Virus record (IMG/VR): IMGVR_UViG_3300021255_001866
Span: 1-64,000 of that record
Strand: one strand, 5' to 3'
DNA: 64,000 nucleotides
Source of the DNA: a virus
Taxonomy: Duplodnaviria; Caudoviricetes
Position numbers and translations under genes: made by a program. Position 1 is the first letter of the stretch; each line of letters opens with the position of its first letter. Shown one piece after another: positions 49,863 to 60,934 of the stretch. The notes beneath the pieces are model-generated. The model was not told the DNA's origin. It saw only the letters and a program-made list of their open reading frames with translations, and made no database searches.

Positions 49863-51077
49863 ATGCTTAATAAGGATAATCAGAGAGAACTTTGTTATGT
49901 AGTGACTATTGATGAAATTCGTCCTATTCCTAATTATGATCGTGTCGAGCATGCTCGTGTTGGTGGTTGGTGGGTGATTGTTCAGAAGGGTCAGTTTAAC
50001 GTTGGCGATCCCGCGATTTATTTTGAGATTGACTCCAAGGTTCCGTCTGATAAGGAATGTTTTGCATTTCTTGAGAAGCGGAACTATAAGGTAAAAACGC
50101 TTCGTATGTGTAAGGTTATAAGCCAAGGGCTTCTTATGCACGCTGAAGATTTCGAATGGACTATTAATGAGTGGGGCGATGCGATTGTTGATGAAAAAGG
50201 CGATCGTCATTATCCCATAGATGAGTCTCGTTTCCTTACCGAAAAACTTGGTGTAACTTATGCTGACGACGAAGATAATAAACGCAAAGCTCCTTCTGTA
50301 GATAAGTATAAAAAGATGGCTCAGCGGCATCCTAATATCTTTAAGAAGAAGTGGGCGCGCTGGCTGATGAAGCGTGAGTGGGGCCGGAAGTTGATGTTTG
50401 TATTCTTCGGTAAGAAGAAAGACAAAAAGAACGGCTGGCCTAGTTATATTGCACAAAAAACTGATGTTGAGAGAATCCAGAATTGTATATTTTTACTAAA
50501 AGATAAACAGCCTTATGTCGCCAGCGAAAAAGTCGACGGATCGAGCTTCTCCGCTATGGCTGAACGTGGAAAATTTAATAAGATTAAATATTATGTCTGT
50601 TCTCGTAATGTAGTCTTTGATACTCCTGATGCTCCTTGCTTCTATGATAGTAATATTTATTTTGAAGCTTGGAATAAGTATAATCTGAAAGAAATTATTA
50701 CCAATATTCTTAATGATTATAATCTTCCTAATGTTGCTATTCAAGCAGAGATTTATGGTGATGGAATTCAGAAGCGCAATTATTCTCTTCATAATGGAGA
50801 GCATCATATGGCAGTATTTCATATTGTTTCTAATGGTGTAAAGTTCCCTATGGATAAAACTGTAGAGATCTGTGAGAAATATGGACTTCCTCATGTTCCT
50901 ATTGTAGATGACAATTATATTCTTCCTGATACTATTGATGAACTTCAGACATATGTTGAAAACGCGCAGTCAATGATTGATGGAAAACCGCGCGAAGGCA
51001 TTGTTTTTTATGATAAGGAAACTGGTCAGCAATACTTTAAGTTTGTGTCTCCAGATTTTCTTCTTAAATTTCATTAA
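49863..51077 (+). CDS. ATP-dependent RNA ligase (Rnl2/DRB0094-like, N-terminal OB domain)
   Basis: EKVDGSS, QAEIYG, F..V, REGIV, FKFV. Confidence 0.88.
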   Translation: MLNKDNQRELCYVVTIDEIRPIPNYDRVEHARVGGWWVIVQKGQFNVGDPAIYFEIDSKVPSDKECFAFLEKRNYKVKTLRMCKVISQGLLMHAEDFEWTINEWGDAIVDEKGDRHYPIDESRFLTEKLGVTYADDEDNKRKAPSVDKYKKMAQRHPNIFKKKWARWLMKREWGRKLMFVFFGKKKDKKNGWPSYIAQKTDVERIQNCIFLLKDKQPYVASEKVDGSSFSAMAERGKFNKIKYYVCSRNVVFDTPDAPCFYDSNIYFEAWNKYNLKEIITNILNDYNLPNVAIQAEIYGDGIQKRNYSLHNGEHHMAVFHIVSNGVKFPMDKTVEICEKYGLPHVPIVDDNYILPDTIDELQTYVENAQSMIDGKPREGIVFYDKETGQQYFKFVSPDFLLKFH

Positions 51078-52219: not shown

Positions 52220-52729
52220 TTGATGGATAATAAAACTCTTTGGATTATGTGCGGGCCGCCAGCTTCGGGGAAAAGTTTTTATGCCACTCATACGTTACAG
52301 TGCGGCGCTGGCTGGAGTTATGTTTCGCGTGATATAATTCGATTCTCTATTGTGGGAGAAGAAGAAGAATATTTTTCACATGAAAAAGAAGTGTTTGATA
52401 CTTTTGTTGAAAATATTGTAGCCAGGCTTAATACTGAAGGTATTTATAACGTTATTGCTGATGCTACTCATTTGAATTGGGTTTCTCGTAGAAAACTTAT
52501 TAAAGCAGTAGAATATTATCTTGGTTTTGGTTTTCGAGATTTGAATATTATCCCGGTCTTTATGAATACTCCTATTGAAGTAATTGAAGAAAGAAATTCA
52601 AAACGGACTGGCCGCGAACGCGTACCAAGTAAAGTGTTGAGAGACATGAATTTTAATTATGAAGATCCCAAAACTGATCCTTATAATTATAATGGAATAT
52701 TGTATGTAAATTATTATGGAAGTGTATAA
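52220..52729 (+). CDS. polynucleotide kinase-like P-loop kinase (AAA_33)
   Basis: CGPPASGKS, SRD, DATHL, R. Confidence 0.82.
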   Translation: MMDNKTLWIMCGPPASGKSFYATHTLQCGAGWSYVSRDIIRFSIVGEEEEYFSHEKEVFDTFVENIVARLNTEGIYNVIADATHLNWVSRRKLIKAVEYYLGFGFRDLNIIPVFMNTPIEVIEERNSKRTGRERVPSKVLRDMNFNYEDPKTDPYNYNGILYVNYYGSV

Positions 52730-53262
52730 TGATATATCTAACTTCTGATTTTCATTTTGGTCATGACCGCGAGTTTATTTATGGTCCACGTGGATATAGT
52801 AATATATATGAAGAAGCAGAAGATCTAATTCAGAAATTTAATAGTGTTGTAACGTGGGAAGATACAGTCTATATTCTTGGTGATTGTATGCTGAATAATG
52901 ATGAATTTGGACTAAAGTGTCTGCGACGGCTCAATGGATTTAAATATCTTATTGTAGGTAATCATGATACAATTGCACGAGTAATGAAGTACCAAGATAG
53001 TGGTATCTTTACGTCTATCGATTACGGCGGCCGCCTACATTATAATAACTGGACGTATCTACTTTCACATTATCCGCAGATCACAGAAAATTATCAAGAT
53101 CGTCATAAGGTTATAAGTCTTTGCGGCCATTCCCATACAAAAGATCCTTTTCTTCATTGGGATAATGGACTTATTTATCATGTTGAAGTAGATGCACATG
53201 ATGGCTACCCAGTAAGTATAGACCAAATTGAAAGTGATATACGGAAGAAACTTAATATTTGA
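52729..53262 (+). CDS. calcineurin-like metallophosphoesterase coupled to the kinase
   Basis: SDFHF, LGDC, GNHD, SHYP, GHSH. Confidence 0.88.
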   Translation: MIYLTSDFHFGHDREFIYGPRGYSNIYEEAEDLIQKFNSVVTWEDTVYILGDCMLNNDEFGLKCLRRLNGFKYLIVGNHDTIARVMKYQDSGIFTSIDYGGRLHYNNWTYLLSHYPQITENYQDRHKVISLCGHSHTKDPFLHWDNGLIYHVEVDAHDGYPVSIDQIESDIRKKLNI

Positions 53263-54569: not shown

Positions 54570-55996
54570 AATACCGATGCTGTTTAAGTATACAGTGGAT
54601 TATTTTGATAATGATTTAGACGAACCAGCAACCGAATCTGGTATAGTTGCGGCGCTTTCTTATGGCTCGGCCGCTGATTATGTAGTACATCTATATGGTT
54701 CTGATAATGTTGTTGGAATTGAACTCTATGAAACTATAATCTGTTTGAGTAAAGATGACTTAAAAGAGATATTCAAATAAAAATTTGATTTTCTTTTAAT
54801 TTTATATTATAATATATATAGAAAGTGAGAGAGAAAAGATGCATTAAATGTCTCTTTTTTCTCCGAGTCGAGACACCCAATGGCCCTCGGTATTAAAACA
54901 GGGAGTTGACTTTTCAGATGGTCTGATATACACTTGAGTGGTTTCAACAAGGTAAACCAAATAGATCGTATATCCGCATCGTTTAAGGTAGGTTTAATCT
55001 GCGATAGTGATGGTAAAACCTCCAACTTTGCAAAGCGGTTTCGCTTGACCGCCCTGCGGGGAAATAAGATACAAATTTATAAAAGGCTTGAAAACCTGGC
55101 GGGACACCGCGAAGAGTTCCGTTCTTGTTGTCCGATGACAGACACTTGTCGAATAATAAAAAAAATTTAGAGTCATACAAAGAGGAATGCTGTGAGACGT
55201 GAGGGGATGCCTGAAGTAGACGAAACAGTATGTGTACAGCCTCCGAGAAGTTGGGCACGAGACTTCTAATATGTACAGTATAAACAAGTGAAAGCGACTT
55301 AATAGAAGCAACAACACTCTATTAAGTGTCCACAAAGGAAGGTGGTTTGTTTAACAGTAGGGGAGTTGTCCCTGGCCGATCTCTAAAAGTTCTCACAGGT
55401 CCAAGTTGAAATGAGAAGAGTTTTGATATAGGACATATGGACCTACGGTCGGTATGGAGACGACAAACCCATGCGAATCCGCACAAAACAAAACTTGCGG
55501 GAGGCGAGAGTAGGTTAAGTTGGCGGTTATACACCTACTATTTTTTAATTACGCTATAAAGAAACGCCCCGAGGCCAGAGGAAGTAGCGCCCCTTAGTCG
55601 ATTATAGAAACGGGTGAGGTATCCTGACACGACCAGGCTCTGCATTGTCTTTATAGTCTAATTAATTAAGAAGAATATAAAGATTTAGGTGCTCAAATGC
55701 TGTAATTAGTAGGTAGTTTTGAAATACACGGTTTGGTAGCTACAAGCCTCCTATTAAGAAGAATGAGTTAAATGGAGTTTGAAGAACAGCCTTATAAAAT
55801 GGCGGTAGGCAAGCACAAAAAGCCGTGAAGAAAATAATGCTCAGGAAAAGGACACGAGGAGAGAGAACTCCCGAATGTCTACGATATGAAGCGCGAGTAG
55901 ATGTACAATAACATCTGTGCAACCTTGATGAGATGCGTGTGATTGAGTTGGTGCTGGGTTGAGACCGACTGACGACTGCACACCCGCCATTTATAT

Positions 55997-56073
55997 ACCC
56001 CAGCAGCTCAGTTGGTTTGAGCGTCCGACTTATAATCGGGTGATCGTTGGTTCGAATCCAACTTGGGGTACCA
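55997..56073 (+). tRNA. tRNA-Ile(TAT)
   Basis: ACCCCAG/TTGGGGT-A-CCA; TCCGA-CTTATAA-TCGGG. Confidence 0.9.
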
Positions 56074-56075
56074 TA

Positions 56076-56223
56076 AAGACAGTATTACAGCAAATTTGTT
56101 TTCTGAACAAGTTATTAGAATTGATCTTGTTTTGCTTGAGATCTTTTAAGTGGCTGAGTTTATAGTGGTTCTAATTTTCAAAGCCTACCGGTTCAACGGT
56201 GTTAAAAAGGAACTTACTGTCTT
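56076..56223 (+). ncRNA. stem+ACAGCAA RNA with a multi-hairpin interior
   Basis: AAGACAGTA-TTACAGCAA ... TACTGTCTT. Confidence 0.6.
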
Positions 56224-56229
56224 GTATAT

Positions 56230-56782
56230 GGCTCCGTAGTTCAGCAACGAAGAATACCTGACTGTGTAAGAATATTTTTGAATAGGTTGATAAAATGAAC
56301 ACCTCTCAACTAGGAAACATTGGAGAAGTACGTGTTTTAAGTGAATTTGTAAAATTAGGAATACCTTGTTATTTACCTTATGGTGATGGTAATAAATGCG
56401 ATTTAATTGCAGATTTTAATGGAAAACTTAATAAAATTCAAATTAAAACTACAGAAAAATTAAATATTAATGGAGCGATGGAGTGGAAAGTTACCAGACA
56501 AGAAGGATTTCATGGAAATCGTGTCCAATATAATAAAGAAGATATAGACTATTTCGCTTTTTATTGTATAGAAACTGATATAGTTTGTTTAGTTCCATTT
56601 GATGAAAATTTTCCTAGTACAACTTTATCAATTCGTATGGATAATTATGTTGGTAATAGATTAAAAACCATGCGATTTGTAAAAGATTATCAAATTAGTA
56701 ATTTTATTAATTCATAAGGTCATACCTTATTTCTTACACCACACTCAGGAGGTCGTGGGAGCAAAGCCCACCGGAGTCGCCA
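56230..56782 (+). tRNA. tRNA-Asp(GTC) split by a 476-nt insert (56266-56741)
   Basis: Exon 1 GGCTCCG..CCTGACTGT plus exon 2 CACTCAGG..CGGAGTC-G-CCA gives a 77-nt cloverleaf with G73. Confidence 0.85.
56295..56717 (+). CDS. PD-(D/E)XK endonuclease encoded inside the tRNA-Asp insert
   Basis: GNIGE..PYGD..DLIAD..KIQIK..Y....IDYF. Confidence 0.85.
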   Translation: MNTSQLGNIGEVRVLSEFVKLGIPCYLPYGDGNKCDLIADFNGKLNKIQIKTTEKLNINGAMEWKVTRQEGFHGNRVQYNKEDIDYFAFYCIETDIVCLVPFDENFPSTTLSIRMDNYVGNRLKTMRFVKDYQISNFINS

Positions 56783-56897
56783 ACTGAGGAGAGTAAGCGC
56801 TCGAATTGACGAGCTACTACACACGACAGGGTCAGTTGTGATTCTCCGCATAGGAGTAGTTGCCCTATGTACCTATATAAATAGCAACTGATTTTTT

Positions 56898-56976
56898 GGG
56901 GAATGGGACTGCTTGGAGTGGTCATCCGCCTTGCACGCGGAAAAACAGATGGGGTCGGTGCCCATATTCTCCACCA
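56898..56976 (+). tRNA. tRNA-Ala(TGC)
   Basis: G3:U70 pair; TCCGC-CTTGCAC-GCGGA; ends ACCA. Confidence 0.85.
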
Positions 56977-56978
56977 TA

Positions 56979-57068
56979 GAGATACATACAGCAATTATAA
57001 AATGGTTAAAGAAATGTTCTGCTAAAACGTTATCGAAAAGGTTCAAATCCTTTAAATTTCTGTATCTC
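56979..57068 (+). ncRNA. stem+ACAGCAA RNA enclosing an acceptor-less tRNA body with a GCT anticodon loop
   Basis: GAGATACA..TGTATCTC; inside are ATGTT-CTGCTAA-AACGT and AAAGG-TTCAAAT-CCTTT. Confidence 0.65.
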
Positions 57069-57083
57069 GTATTAAAAATATAT

Positions 57084-57158
57084 TGCTCAGTAGCTCAGAG
57101 GCAGAGCGCACGCCTGTTAAGCGTGATGTCGAGATATCGTAATTCTCCTGGGCAGCCA
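57084..57158 (+). tRNA. tRNA-Asn(GTT)
   Basis: CACGC-CTGTTAA-GCGTG; ends GCCA. Confidence 0.88.
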
Positions 57159-57160
57159 TA

Positions 57161-57287
57161 AAGACGTATACAGCAAAATCTTCTTTAAGAAGGATATGGG
57201 TTCGATTCCCATAATTGGAGTGCTCCAATTTAGCCAAACGGTAAGGCAACAGTCTGATAACTGTGAATAAAATCTTATATACGTCTT
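57161..57287 (+). ncRNA. stem+ACAGCAA RNA enclosing a permuted tRNA mimic
   Basis: AAGACGTA..TACGTCTT; T arm TATGGG-TTCGATT-CCCATA, closed acceptor ATTGGAG-TG-CTCCAAT, D arm GCC-AAACGGTAA-GGC, anticodon-like ACAGT-CTGATA-ACTGT. Confidence 0.75.
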
Positions 57288-57295
57288 GTTAATAT

Positions 57296-57431
57296 GCGGG
57301 CGTGGTGGAATAGGTAGACACCACAGACGCTAGTGTCCAGTGACAATTAGCTGGGGCAGCACCAGTGTCTAGCACCATTAAAATCTGTTGGGTTTTAGCC
57401 CGTGCCGGTTCAAGTCCGGCCGCCCGCACCA
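57296..57431 (+). tRNA. tRNA-Leu(TAA) with a 49-nt insert (57329-57377)
   Basis: GCGGGCG..ACAGAC | TTAAAA TCTGT..CGCCCGC-A-CCA gives an 87-nt class II tRNA after removal. Confidence 0.88.
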
Positions 57432-57626
57432 AAATAAAAGGAGAATAAAATGACAATTCATAGATGCGATTTGTGTGGAAAAGAAGTTGGCGTATGGTTT
57501 AGTATCACTGCTAAAATAGATTCTACTTATCAAGCGACAAATGTTTATGATTTACTAAAATATCAAGGTAATTATGATATTTGTAGTAAATGTTTTAAGA
57601 GTTTGATTGATGAAAGAGTTAAATAA

Positions 57627-57701
57627 GCGCCACTAGTTCAGAAGTAGAACACTTGCCTTTTAAGCAAGGAGTGCGGGGAGCATTACCCCGGTGGCGCACC
57701 A
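57627..57701 (+). tRNA. tRNA-Lys(TTT)
   Basis: CTTGC-CTTTTAA-GCAAG; ends ACCA. Confidence 0.9.
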
Positions 57702-57795
57702 GGTAGGTCGTGCAACTATTGTGTACGTAGGCGAACGATACGGCATAAATGGTAAAATGGAGTTCGAATGACGCACGATAAATCCCCTACCACCA
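57702..57795 (+). ncRNA. non-cloverleaf tRNA-like RNA ending in helix+ACCA
   Basis: GGTAGG/CCTACC-A-CCA; TCGTGC/GCACGA helix; D-loop-like and GTTCGAAT motifs. Confidence 0.55.
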
Positions 57796-57798
57796 TTT

Positions 57799-57886
57799 GC
57801 CGTCGTACCCTAATGGTAAGGGCCTGGCCTTGAAAGCCATGAGTAGGTGAAAGTCTATCGGGGTTCGAATCCTCGCGGCGGCGCCA
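57799..57886 (+). tRNA. tRNA-Ser(TGA)
   Basis: TGGC-CTTGAAA-GCCA; long variable arm; G73. Confidence 0.85.
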
Positions 57887-57895
57887 TTTAAATAA

Positions 57896-58445
57896 GCCGG
57901 AGTCCCATAGTGGTCAATTGGAACGGTTTTGTTTACTGAATTTATTTATTATGGATTTATTAAGTTCTAAGCAAAAAGGGAATTTAACTGAGCTACAATG
58001 TATTACTAGCTTTTATGAATTAGGGTATACTGTGTCAATTCCTTATGGAGAAAATTCCCGTTATGATTTTATTGCGGATATTCATGGAAAATTAATTAAA
58101 GTTCAAGTTAAAACTTCTTCTGAGAAAGATGAAGGAAAAACTTTTGAATTTTCTTGTCGAAGCACTAGAGTAAACGCTCAAGGCAATATTTCTAGGCAAT
58201 ATACAGCAGATGAAATTGATTATTTCTGTACTTATTTTAAAAATTAGTGCTATTTAATACCTATTTCGGAATGTTCTAGATCTAAAAAACTTAGATTAGA
58301 AGCTCCTATTAATAATCAAAAGGTGGGGATTAATATGGCAAAAGATTATGAATTAATAACCCAACTTAATAAATTAAAAGGATAAACATTGGTAAACAAA
58401 GCCGTCGCGCAAGCTTCGTGAGTTCGAATCTCACTTCCGGCTCCA
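57896..58445 (+). tRNA. tRNA split by a 466-nt insert; Ser(TGA) or Thr(TGT) depending on the junction
   Basis: GCCGGAG/TTCCGGC-T-CCA; anticodon stem ACGGT/GCCGT; T arm GTGAG-TTCGAAT-CTCAC. Confidence 0.75.
57951..58385 (+). CDS. PD-(D/E)XK endonuclease inside the tRNA insert (one TAG=Gln)
   Basis: KGNLTE..PYGE..YDFIAD..KVQVK..IDYF; paralogous to 56295-56717; exact 145-codon frame. Confidence 0.85.
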
Positions 58446-58448
58446 TAT

Positions 58449-58524
58449 GCGGACGTGGTGTAATTGGTAACACAACAATCTCCAAAATTGTTAGATTTAG
58501 GTTCGAGTCCTAACGGTCGTGCCA
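58449..58524 (+). tRNA. tRNA-Trp(CCA)
   Basis: ACAAT-CTCCAAA-ATTGT; G73. Confidence 0.85.
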
Positions 58525-58675
58525 TAAGAGTTAGTGTAAATGATATACGAAAAAAGAAGTCGCGAATCTTTACCAGTATATCAGTATTGAGGACTATCGC
58601 GCGAAAGTCTGACTATATGTAAGCACGCCCCATGTGGATTGGGGTAGAGCAGTAGAAATCTGGCACTCTTAACCA
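58525..58675 (+). ncRNA. 151-nt RNA with a 7-bp acceptor-like stem + ACCA and an enlarged interior
   Basis: TAAGAGT/ACTCTTA-A-CCA; internal GATATAC/GTATATC and CCCCA/TGGGG helices. Confidence 0.55.
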
Positions 58676-59137
58676 AGTAAGTGAGGAATAAGTAATTAGC
58701 TATAATTACTACTAGTTAAATTATGCGTAAAAGGATTAGCCTTTCCAGAAAAGTTTGTGCCTGCGCAAATGTAATGGTACTGGTTCCGATGCCACAGATC
58801 ATGGTGCATAAGCCAGCTTTAATATTAGGAGTTATTATGGATAATCAGATTTATTGGTTTATTACTGTATTTAAAGAGTTTGATAAAAATTATGGTATTA
58901 AAGGTGCACGGACTTGGGGCTTTTATTCTAACAAAGAAGATGCTCTTGATACATTAACTAATAATCGTACAGATCTTTGGGAACGTTGTTATGATTATGC
59001 AGTTCTTGAAGCATATTATGAAGGTATTAGTGGTTATGATTTTGAAGAAGAGCATATTTTCTTTCAATATGATTATGTAGAAAATAAATATTATCCAATA
59101 GGATATGAGCCAGAAGAAGTAAAGCATTATGTAGGAT

Positions 59138-59488
59138 TTGCAATTGGATAAAATGAAAAGTCGTAATTGTCCAAACTGCGGCGCGCCGTATGATATAAAT
59201 GAATATAAATGTCCTTATTGCGGTACTTTATATCTTGATCTTTCAATGATTGATTTCGATAATCAAACTCCATTATTTCTTTCAATTAAACAACATGGAG
59301 TAATAATTACTCAAAAGGTTTTACCACAAACCGCAGCGTTTGAAATGAATGAAGATGTGGTTTATGCGACATCTGTTCGTGATGATAAGCTAATGAGTTT
59401 TCCTATTAGTAGAAATTTAGAAACAAATATTCAATTTATTGCCATTCCGATGAAGGATAATAATTTAGCATATATAAAAGGAACTTGA
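59138..59488 (+). CDS. zinc-ribbon protein
   Basis: CPNCGAP..CPYCG. Confidence 0.65.
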   Translation: MQLDKMKSRNCPNCGAPYDINEYKCPYCGTLYLDLSMIDFDNQTPLFLSIKQHGVIITQKVLPQTAAFEMNEDVVYATSVRDDKLMSFPISRNLETNIQFIAIPMKDNNLAYIKGT

Positions 59489-59552
59489 ATTGCTCACCAA
59501 AGAAAATTTGATTTTTCTTTAAATTTATAATATAATATATACAGAAAGTTGA

Positions 59553-59622
59553 GAGACACAAACAGCAAATTATTTAACATCATTCTGAACTTTTAATTCT
59601 GAAAACTATGTTAACGTGTCTC
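59553..59622 (+). ncRNA. stem+ACAGCAA RNA
   Basis: GAGACAC-AAACAGCAA ... GTGTCTC at a promoter start. Confidence 0.6.
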
Positions 59623-59630
59623 GTTTTTAT

Positions 59631-59706
59631 CTGGGTGTACGCCAACTGGTAGACGGCCGCATTTGGGATGCGGAGGATGGGTGTTCAAACCACCCCACTC
59701 AGGCCA
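59631..59706 (+). tRNA. tRNA-Pro(TGG)
   Basis: CCGCA-TTTGGGA-TGCGG; ends GCCA. Confidence 0.85.
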
Positions 59707-59825
59707 TAGGCACAAACAGCAAATTAAAGATTAAATCTTTATGTTACTGGTTCGAGTCCAGTTTTGCAAGCCATTAATTTTGCATATTGATCAAATGGTA
59801 GATCGGAAGAATTATTATGTGCCTA
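59707..59825 (+). ncRNA. stem+ACAGCAA RNA enclosing a permuted T-acceptor-D module
   Basis: TAGGCACA..TGTGCCTA; ACTGG-TTCGAGT-CCAGT, TTTGCAA..TTGCATA, GATC-AAATGGTA-GATC. Confidence 0.72.
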
Positions 59826-59831
59826 GTATAT

Positions 59832-59906
59832 AGCCGAGTCGTATAGCGGCCTGTACGTGCGGCTTTGACCCGCAAAGTGAAGGATCGACACCTTCCTCGG
59901 CTGCCA
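59832..59906 (+). tRNA. tRNA-Gln(TTG)
   Basis: TGCGG-CTTTGAC-CCGCA; ends GCCA. Confidence 0.88.
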
Positions 59907-60816: not shown

Positions 60817-60934
60817 CTACAGCTTTACTGAGAATTCCTTATTGGGAACGTGATAATTTAAGTTTAGAATTATTATTTAATAATAAGTATATTATATAAC
60901 TACGGTCTTGACTAAGACTAAGAAGGAGAGTTTT

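Follow-up and report, generated by a model that had tools for sequence, protein, structure and literature searches.

Three phage tRNA genes interrupted by ribozyme-less inserts with tRNA acceptor-like ends: a possible protein-dependent splicing route

Introduction

In the textbook view the tRNA introns of bacteria and phages are self-splicing group I introns, and protein-spliced tRNA introns are archaeal or eukaryal. Here we analyse inserts that break three tRNA genes, for Asp, Leu and Thr, in the anticodon loop in the virus record IMGVR_UViG_3300021255_001866. The stretch analysed, referred to as the window, covers the opening 64 kb of this 89,313-bp record of a gut or rumen phage, whose completeness is estimated at 73%, and all three split genes lie in its tRNA cluster at 55997-59906. 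Related loci and contigs fetched for comparison carry L-numbers (e.g. L224, L173, L063). L224 and L173, termed siblings, are phage contigs syntenic with the window and 85-95% identical to it.

The closest described elements are the 'enigmatic' introns in the anticodon region of tRNA genes of Lak megaphages, whose genomes use code 15 (Devoto et al. 2019, PMC6784885). One of them, in Lak tRNA-Thr(TGT), 'itself may encode a tRNA'; it is the same in different cohorts, and some alleles lack it (PMC6784885). Like the Lak introns, the inserts in the window interrupt phage tRNA genes in the anticodon region, and intron-less alleles exist. The Lak report is a description alone, and gives no end architecture, endonuclease cargo or mechanism (PMC6784885); nothing on the mechanism of such introns was found in the literature after Devoto et al. 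2019. In contrast to the Lak introns, two of the window inserts carry homing endonuclease genes, and solely the top half of a tRNA appears to be mimicked. The endonuclease-bearing form, with an acceptor mimic ending in RCCA or ACA, is a new variant within a barely described group of introns.

The group I intron of Synechocystis tRNA-fMet (I-Ssp6803I, 2OST, PF11645) shares with the window inserts the endonuclease family, the anticodon-loop target and homing mobility. The fetched loci also include group-I-looking relatives with an open reading frame (ORF) of the PF11645 type, and in L173 such an intron occupies the same tRNA-Leu. The window inserts differ from these in having no recognisable ribozyme and 31-53 nt of non-coding sequence, as compared to roughly 130-170 nt in the fetched group-I-looking loci. 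Their insertion sites are 32/33, 35/36 and 36/37, whereas the Leu group I intron lies at 34/35. Archaeal and eukaryal tRNA introns (bulge-helix-bulge; EndA/Sen with RtcB/Trl1) are likewise ribozyme-free, lie in the anticodon loop and use an endonuclease and a ligase, but the window inserts have neither a bulge-helix-bulge nor an EndA gene.

The RNA of Escherichia coli RNase P cleaves hairpins that consist of no more than acceptor stem, T stem and T loop, and does so at the canonical site (McClain 1987, reviewed in PMC11143913); external guide sequences build on such cutting of acceptor-like hairpins by RNase P (PMC11143913). In such model substrates a helix with a 3' RCCA, the stacked hairpin being optional, directs the cut to the 5' side of the helix (PMC11143913), which in the window is the 5' junction. 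At the other end, cleavage directly behind an encoded CCA is made by the RNase Z of Thermotoga maritima and in some cases by RNase E (PMC7479834). Model substrates, external guide sequences and mascRNA are laboratory substrates or end-forming signals, unlike the splice sites proposed here. We know of no intron whose two splice sites are formed by an RNase P model substrate or a mascRNA-type signal. The T4 Pnkp/Rnl1 and the bacterial Pnkp-Rnl-Hen1 systems, like the set of genes in the window, combine a kinase, a phosphoesterase and a ligase able to reseal an anticodon loop. These systems mend the damage done by host anticodon nucleases, whereas for the window genes a role in splicing is proposed.

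Junctions of the three inserts

The sequence-only reading of the window had described three tRNA genes split in the anticodon loop, with paired ends and a tail recurring at different loop positions. Comparison with the related loci bears this out for Asp, Leu and Thr, with junctions at 35/36, 32/33 and 36/37 respectively. Intron-less alleles, which it had proposed to look for in related phages, were found and fix the junctions to the base. All exons and inserts, with their helices, tails, hairpins and endonuclease genes, are on the + strand.

The 5' exon of tRNA-Asp(GTC) (positions 1-35) is at 56230-56265 and its 3' exon (positions 36-76, CCA encoded) at 56742-56782. In L224 and L173 base 56265 is joined straight to base 56742, and the 476-nt insert at 56266-56741 has no counterpart there; the junction is thus fixed at 35/36. 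With the insert removed, the gene is called tRNA-Asp by ARAGORN. The first seven bases of the insert (GTAAGAA, 56266-56272) pair with TTCTTAC at 56731-56737, which is followed by the tail ACCA at 56738-56741, as had been read from the window alone. A hairpin at 56715-56729 spans the stop codon of the endonuclease gene and is separated from the 3' strand of the helix by a single base (56730).

For tRNA-Leu(TAA) the 5' exon (1-32) is at 57296-57328 and the 3' exon at 57378-57431, as placed by intron-less alleles together with ARAGORN, which calls the spliced form, and with Rfam tRNA matches for the 5' exon. The alleles L155, L190 and L217 read ...CAGAC|TTAAAATCTGT, which places the 49-nt, ORF-less insert at 57329-57377, the predicted position, and its junction at 32/33. 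It begins with GCTAG (57329-57333) and ends with CTAGC (57369-57373) and the tail ACCA (57374-57377). A possible hairpin, CTGG-GGCAGCA-CCAG at 57351-57365, ends 3 nt before the 3' strand of the helix; it is a sequence reading alone and competes with other folds.

The tRNA-Thr(TGT) gene has its 5' exon (1-36) at 57896-57932, a 466-nt insert at 57933-58398 and its 3' exon at 58399-58445. The anticodon, junction, U73 and T arm match the genes of L173 and L224, while the rest of the tRNA body differs from both; the 3' exon was placed by this comparison and by ARAGORN on the spliced form. In L173 the gene is uninterrupted; in L224 it is broken at 36/37 by an insert that holds a related endonuclease gene. 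The earlier description of this insert was right as to paired ends and an ACA tail, but the insert starts at 57933 and not at 57932, and the helix has 7 bp (TTACTGA/TTGGTAA) instead of 4, with strands at 57933-57939 and 58389-58395 and the tail at 58396-58398. In its spliced form the tRNA-Thr of the window, perhaps not fully functional, is marked by a variable region of 12 nt and an unusual D arm, neither of which is found in the 75-76-nt Thr genes of L173, L224, L256 and L258.

In its intron mode ARAGORN failed to detect the Asp insert, and most of the short 'introns' that it reported for the fetched loci were spurious; a half-tRNA finder of our own was used instead. With the inserts removed, all of the 11 window and related genes were called tRNAs by ARAGORN at default settings (6 Asp in five bodies, 4 Thr in four, 1 Leu).

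Conservation and covariation of the insert ends

The Asp, Leu and Thr inserts have no flank sequence in common. In each of them the first base of the insert (+1) opens the helix and its last base closes the tail. Six diverged copies of the Asp type were compared: that of the window and five further variants with endonucleases 80-97% identical to the window's, among them L246, L248 and L250. All are 476 nt long save L250 (475). A 7-bp helix starts at base +1 with a G-C pair in 6/6 copies, and in 6/6 the 3' strand of the helix is followed by RCCA (ACCA or GCCA), after which the exon resumes immediately. Pair cells were scored as Watson-Crick or G-U, with the partner strand slid by 1-3 bases as the control. 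The Asp-type helix is paired in 42/42 cells (18-23/42 in the control) and carries double compensatory changes at positions 3, 4, 5 and 7. The pattern exceeds what chance would give: when the two Asp flanks were shuffled, a 7-bp helix in that register was obtained in 345/200,000 trials. The 4-5-bp hairpin one base upstream of the 3' strand, which overlaps the stop codon, covaries as well (TAAGG/CCTTA versus TGAG/CTCA), the change from TAA to TGA being matched by a T-to-C change.

The junction of the Asp type is at 35/36 (CTGT|CAC) in four copies and at 36/37 (CTGTC|AC) in the two others, L246 and L248. Despite this one-base shift, the helix and ACCA of L246 and L248 are still found at both insert edges. 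Since helix and tail track the edges when the junction moves, the edges are set by the insert's own acceptor-like end and not by the tRNA.

In 4/4 copies of the Thr type (window, L224, L256, L258) a helix of 7 bp begins at +1, and the tail is ACA throughout. The helix of this type is paired in 28/28 cells, as against 4-15/28 with the partner strand slid, and compensatory changes are seen at positions 2, 3 and 4. In the slid controls roughly 45% of the cells pair. No T-arm-like hairpin was seen in this type.

By sequence comparison, the end structure is under selection and coincides to the base with both exon junctions. These results support the insert ends as a conserved, covarying mimic of the tRNA acceptor end (7 bp and RCCA).

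Pattern scans for further copies of the Leu mini-insert returned L224, where it lies beside an uninterrupted tRNA-Asp, and otherwise chance matches. Between the window and L224 the split tRNA-Leu, intron included, differs at 1/136 bases and the two flanks at 25/332 (Fisher p=0.0016). The predicted fold of the Leu insert is no better than that of shuffled sequence (z = 0.13). In the predicted fold of the Asp precursor the 5' junction is at or inside a helix, and in that of the window Thr precursor the anticodon stem, the loop and the helix form one unbroken 17-bp rod.

Search for ribozymes and for archaeal-type introns

The flanks of the endonuclease ORFs had been judged too short for a group I core, and this assessment holds: the non-coding part amounts to 29+24 nt in the Asp insert (53), 49 nt in the Leu insert and 18+13 nt in the Thr insert (31), and group I and group II models gave no match. 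The catalytic core of group I introns comprises P3-P9, and the smallest natural examples are about 200 nt. An Rfam scan of 54.5-60.6 kb, on both strands at E<=5, returned tRNAs and noise alone, with no group I, group II or small self-cleaving ribozyme such as a hammerhead, twister, pistol, hatchet or HDV-like motif, and five related loci likewise gave no ribozyme match. As a positive contrast, the tRNA-Leu intron of L173 gives weak RF00028 matches of 19.3 and 14.5 bits. Rfam has limited sensitivity here: for the group-I-looking ORF relative L003, RF00028 was not matched at E<=1. The size of the inserts thus weighs more heavily against group I. Neither a reverse transcriptase nor domain V was found that would point to group II, and the sole ORF in the Asp insert encodes a 140-aa nuclease. 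Thus, the data support the view that the window inserts belong neither to the group I nor to the group II introns, nor to any Rfam ribozyme.

Archaeal-type introns were looked for as well. The predicted folds show no bulge-helix-bulge at the junctions, and an EndA-family nuclease (PF01974) is absent from the phage record (73% complete). A staggered cut of the RNase III type was also rejected, the stagger being 3-4 nt and not 2 nt.

A 'large class' of endonuclease inserts (L003, L024, L037 and others) was considered as a second ribozyme-less type and discarded. Their 130-170-nt flanks look like group I by eye, with a P2-like hairpin and stretches (GCTAATTCGG..., AGTCCAGACCAC...) that resemble a group I core. 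The group I-like intron of L173 measures ~715 nt and lies at 34/35 of the same tRNA-Leu(TAA) (8546-9241, minus strand). By eye, L236 has an insert resembling it at the same tRNA-Leu site.

Proposed excision and joining

The reading we tentatively favour is excision of the inserts by tRNA end-processing enzymes followed by ligation of the exons. The inserts would then be mobile introns that lack a ribozyme and whose ends, folded together, reproduce the top of a tRNA. The small hairpin of the Asp type would be placed where a T arm would stack, and the endonuclease gene, where present, would take the place of the D and anticodon arms. For the cutting we infer RNase P and a 3'-end nuclease, and for the joining an RNA ligase. 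RNase P would cut 5' of the helix, at what would be the 5' splice site, and exon 1 would keep a 3'-OH. The cut after the tail, at the 3' splice site, would be made by a nuclease that generates CCA ends (a Thermotoga-type RNase Z, RNase BN or RNase E) and would leave a 5'-phosphate on exon 2. The tRNA body would keep the two halves together, and an ATP-dependent RNA ligase, either that of the phage (49863-51077) or a host enzyme, would seal the anticodon loop. The freed intron would be an endonuclease mRNA with a tRNA-like closed end.

A set of RNA-repair genes is encoded at 48.3-53.3 kb: an RlaP-like nucleotidyltransferase, two metallophosphoesterases, a P-loop kinase and an RNA ligase. The genes for ligase, kinase and phosphoesterase lie 5-8 kb upstream. 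The candidate exon joiner is the ATP-dependent RNA ligase (49863-51077, + strand), which has an N-terminal OB domain (PF21189 and PF09414) and counts the RNA ligase of Naegleria gruberi (5cot, E 5e-19) among its relatives. A polynucleotide-kinase-like P-loop kinase (52220-52729, + strand; PF13671; Pnkp1 4xrp, T4 Pnk 1ly1) is followed by a metallophosphoesterase (52729-53262, + strand; PF12850). The sequence-only reading had let kinase, phosphatases and ligase join the exons together. The genes are indeed there, but the kinase and phosphatases are not required by a route through RNase P and RNase Z. Both enzymes leave a 3'-OH and a 5'-phosphate, and an ATP-dependent ligase can join such ends directly; the ligase alone would thus be enough.

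Splicing is favoured because no base separates exon from helix, or tail from exon, in any of the three unrelated inserts, and because the junction shifts by one base together with the helix. It is also favoured because the ORF-less Leu insert, which has no endonuclease of its own to maintain it, has been kept (1/136 versus 25/332), and because the split genes are the only genes of the phage for Asp(GTC), Thr(TGT) and Leu(TAA) in the 89-kb record.

A number of observations weigh against it. To our knowledge, protein-only tRNA splicing has not been described in bacteria. Exact borders can also be passed on by homing. The mimic is imperfect in the Thr type, where the tail is ACA and the CCA is incomplete, and this ACA is complementary to the anticodon UGU. 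The hairpin loop of the Asp type does not fit the T-loop consensus TTCRANY, and the Leu helix has just 5 bp and is known from two identical copies (window and L224), i.e. a single sequence. A 470-nt endonuclease insert in tRNA-Lys(TTT) of L173 (reverse strand; window equivalent 57627-57701) has another end design than the three of the window, with a perfect 12-bp helix (GAAAGTATTTTC/GAAAATACTTTC) placed 12-15 nt inside its ends. No match to PF09414, PF09511 or RtcB was obtained in the L256 record, 158 kb long and 92% complete, in which a Thr-type insert is present; a phage ligase therefore is no general requirement, and the lack of a detectable ligase in a near-complete relative counts also for inserts that are never spliced. 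In the control genome of Bacteroides thetaiotaomicron RtcB was matched. RNA ligase genes occur in 2/5 records with ribozyme-less inserts, mostly fragments, and in 1/5 group-I-looking ones, numbers too small for a comparison. The remaining points of this kind come from the mobility of the inserts and are given with it below.

Overall, the window may hold, possibly though not with confidence, a third, protein-dependent form of tRNA splicing in bacteria and phages. Its parts would be a tRNA-disguised intron, end-trimming enzymes and a ligase, with endonuclease genes riding in the ribozyme's place. If the inserts are spliced, a new splicing route would have been built from housekeeping tRNA-processing enzymes. 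Such a route would account for the 'enigmatic' introns of Lak phages, assign a further task to phage RNA ligases and repair genes, and show how a homing endonuclease can persist in an essential RNA without a ribozyme. The window offers a good test bed, with two ORF-bearing inserts, a minimal 49-nt form and clean natural alleles with and without inserts in the siblings. The group I intron of one sibling in the same tRNA-Leu adds to the value of this phage set.

Mobility of the endonuclease genes and the case for unspliced inserts

The Asp insert carries a homing endonuclease gene of the PD-(D/E)XK I-Ssp6803I family (56295-56717, 140 aa; PF11645 E 1.6e-21, profile 1-135 of 138; PDB 2ost E 6e-5). 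The Thr insert carries a second one (57951-58385, 144 aa) with an in-frame TAG at 58245-58247 (PF11645 E 3.4e-31 if TAG=Q, profile 2-137 of 138). Both keep the invariant columns E11, D36, Q49 and K51 of alignment A1. With the Asp endonuclease alone as query, a scan of viral contigs gave no matches, and a profile was needed to find relatives.

Part of the genome uses TAG as a sense codon: over 80-89 kb the ORF cover increases from 0.37 to 0.91 with TAG read-through, and a tRNA(CTA) is encoded at 65398-65468, beyond the window. Many long ORFs at 77-87 kb, also beyond the window, appear solely with TAG read-through. In other contigs several endonuclease homologues are translatable solely with TAG=Q.

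The Asp insert is not found in siblings 93-94% identical in the flanks. The window tRNA-Asp differs from that of the siblings by four bases, which make up two compensatory anticodon-stem pairs (CCTGA/TCAGG versus CGTGC/GCACG). This version of the anticodon stem is that of the L063 allele, which carries a 97%-identical endonuclease, and the similarity to L063 and L067 stops at the borders of tRNA and insert. From these alignments, the Asp insert is a recent arrival by homing with short co-conversion of the anticodon stem. Selection after insertion was considered for the stem changes and rejected, the pattern being that of co-conversion on homing.

Homing alone may account for the inserts, and it is a doubtful but by no means small possibility that they are never spliced. 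An endonuclease gene would have homed into the anticodon loop and inactivated a dispensable phage tRNA, the exons never being rejoined. Helix and RCCA would let RNase P and 3' trimming free the endonuclease mRNA from the transcript of the tRNA cluster and would protect its ends. The recent spread of the Asp insert by homing with co-conversion agrees with this, and since the insert is recent, its intact exons say little about selection. The relatives of the endonuclease point the same way. At 50-82% identity they are mostly free-standing beside an intact tRNA-Asp (L070, L074, L075, L077, L079, L080, L252), and those at <=76% identity (L252-L255), all free-standing, added no further intron copies. 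In L070, L074, L077, L079 and L080 the ORF ends 0-10 nt before the real tRNA-Asp that it abuts, and the RNase P cut at the start of that tRNA would shape the 3' end of the mRNA. Imprecise or chimeric inserts also exist (L076, L078). Without splicing, the inserts would represent a selfish gene that switches off phage tRNAs and borrows tRNA processing for its own mRNA.

However, the base-exact match of helix start and tail end to the junctions, in three inserts and at two loop positions, would be left unexplained if the exons were never joined. The same holds for the ORF-less 49-nt insert, unchanged in two phages with flanks ~7% different. The phage would, moreover, lose its only tRNAs for Asp, Thr(TGT) and Leu(TAA).

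In L078/L081 the endonuclease gene lies between an old 5' tRNA half and an apparent replacement 5' part of the tRNA.

Other cutting activities

Cutting by a phage protein is unlikely. Here the PD-(D/E)XK endonuclease would act as splicing nuclease or maturase, or another phage nuclease would cut, and the repair set would heal and seal the ends. The heal-and-seal genes are close by and would be required only for cuts that leave a cyclic phosphate and a 5'-OH, and a relation of the archaeal splicing endonuclease EndA to the PD-(D/E)XK fold has been proposed. No EndA-family gene is present in the phage record, the Asp and Thr endonucleases are just ~30% identical and yet their inserts have the same end design, and L224 has the Leu mini-insert with no Asp-type endonuclease in the 11 kb read, the rest of its 62.5-kb record not having been searched.

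A new, very small self-cleaving or self-splicing RNA made of the insert ends and the tRNA body is very improbable: although the end structure is conserved and the weak sensitivity of Rfam leaves room for a novel motif, the room for it is just 31-53 non-coding nt, the types have nothing conserved in common but a helix of free sequence and a tail of 3-4 nt, and no Rfam ribozyme is matched at E<=5.

Other features of the tRNA cluster

Directly upstream of the tRNA cluster, 54800-55990 forms an ORF-free stretch of ~1.2 kb with G+C above its surroundings. Patches at 54907-55068, 55268-55429 and 55795-56094 are conserved in sibling phages. It has no match in Rfam, neither GOLLD nor ROOL, and may be a large structured RNA.

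Several units between the tRNAs (56076-56229, 56979-57068, 57161-57287 and 59738-59810) have a terminal stem and an ACAGCAA motif and contain rearranged tRNA-like modules. The unit at 59738-59810 has a weak YrlA match, and the neighbouring gene at 60908-62440 is DUF2828/DUF7788/vWA (Ro-like). These units were considered as permuted tRNA genes, an idea dropped in favour of YrlA-like Y RNAs beside a DUF2828/Ro-like gene; they are probably Y-RNA-like (YrlA-like) RNAs.

A free-standing 97-nt unit at 57702-57798, directly after the CCA of tRNA-Lys, has paired ends GGTAGG...CCTACC followed by ACCA. It contains a T-loop-like motif, GTTCGAAT, yet is not called a tRNA.

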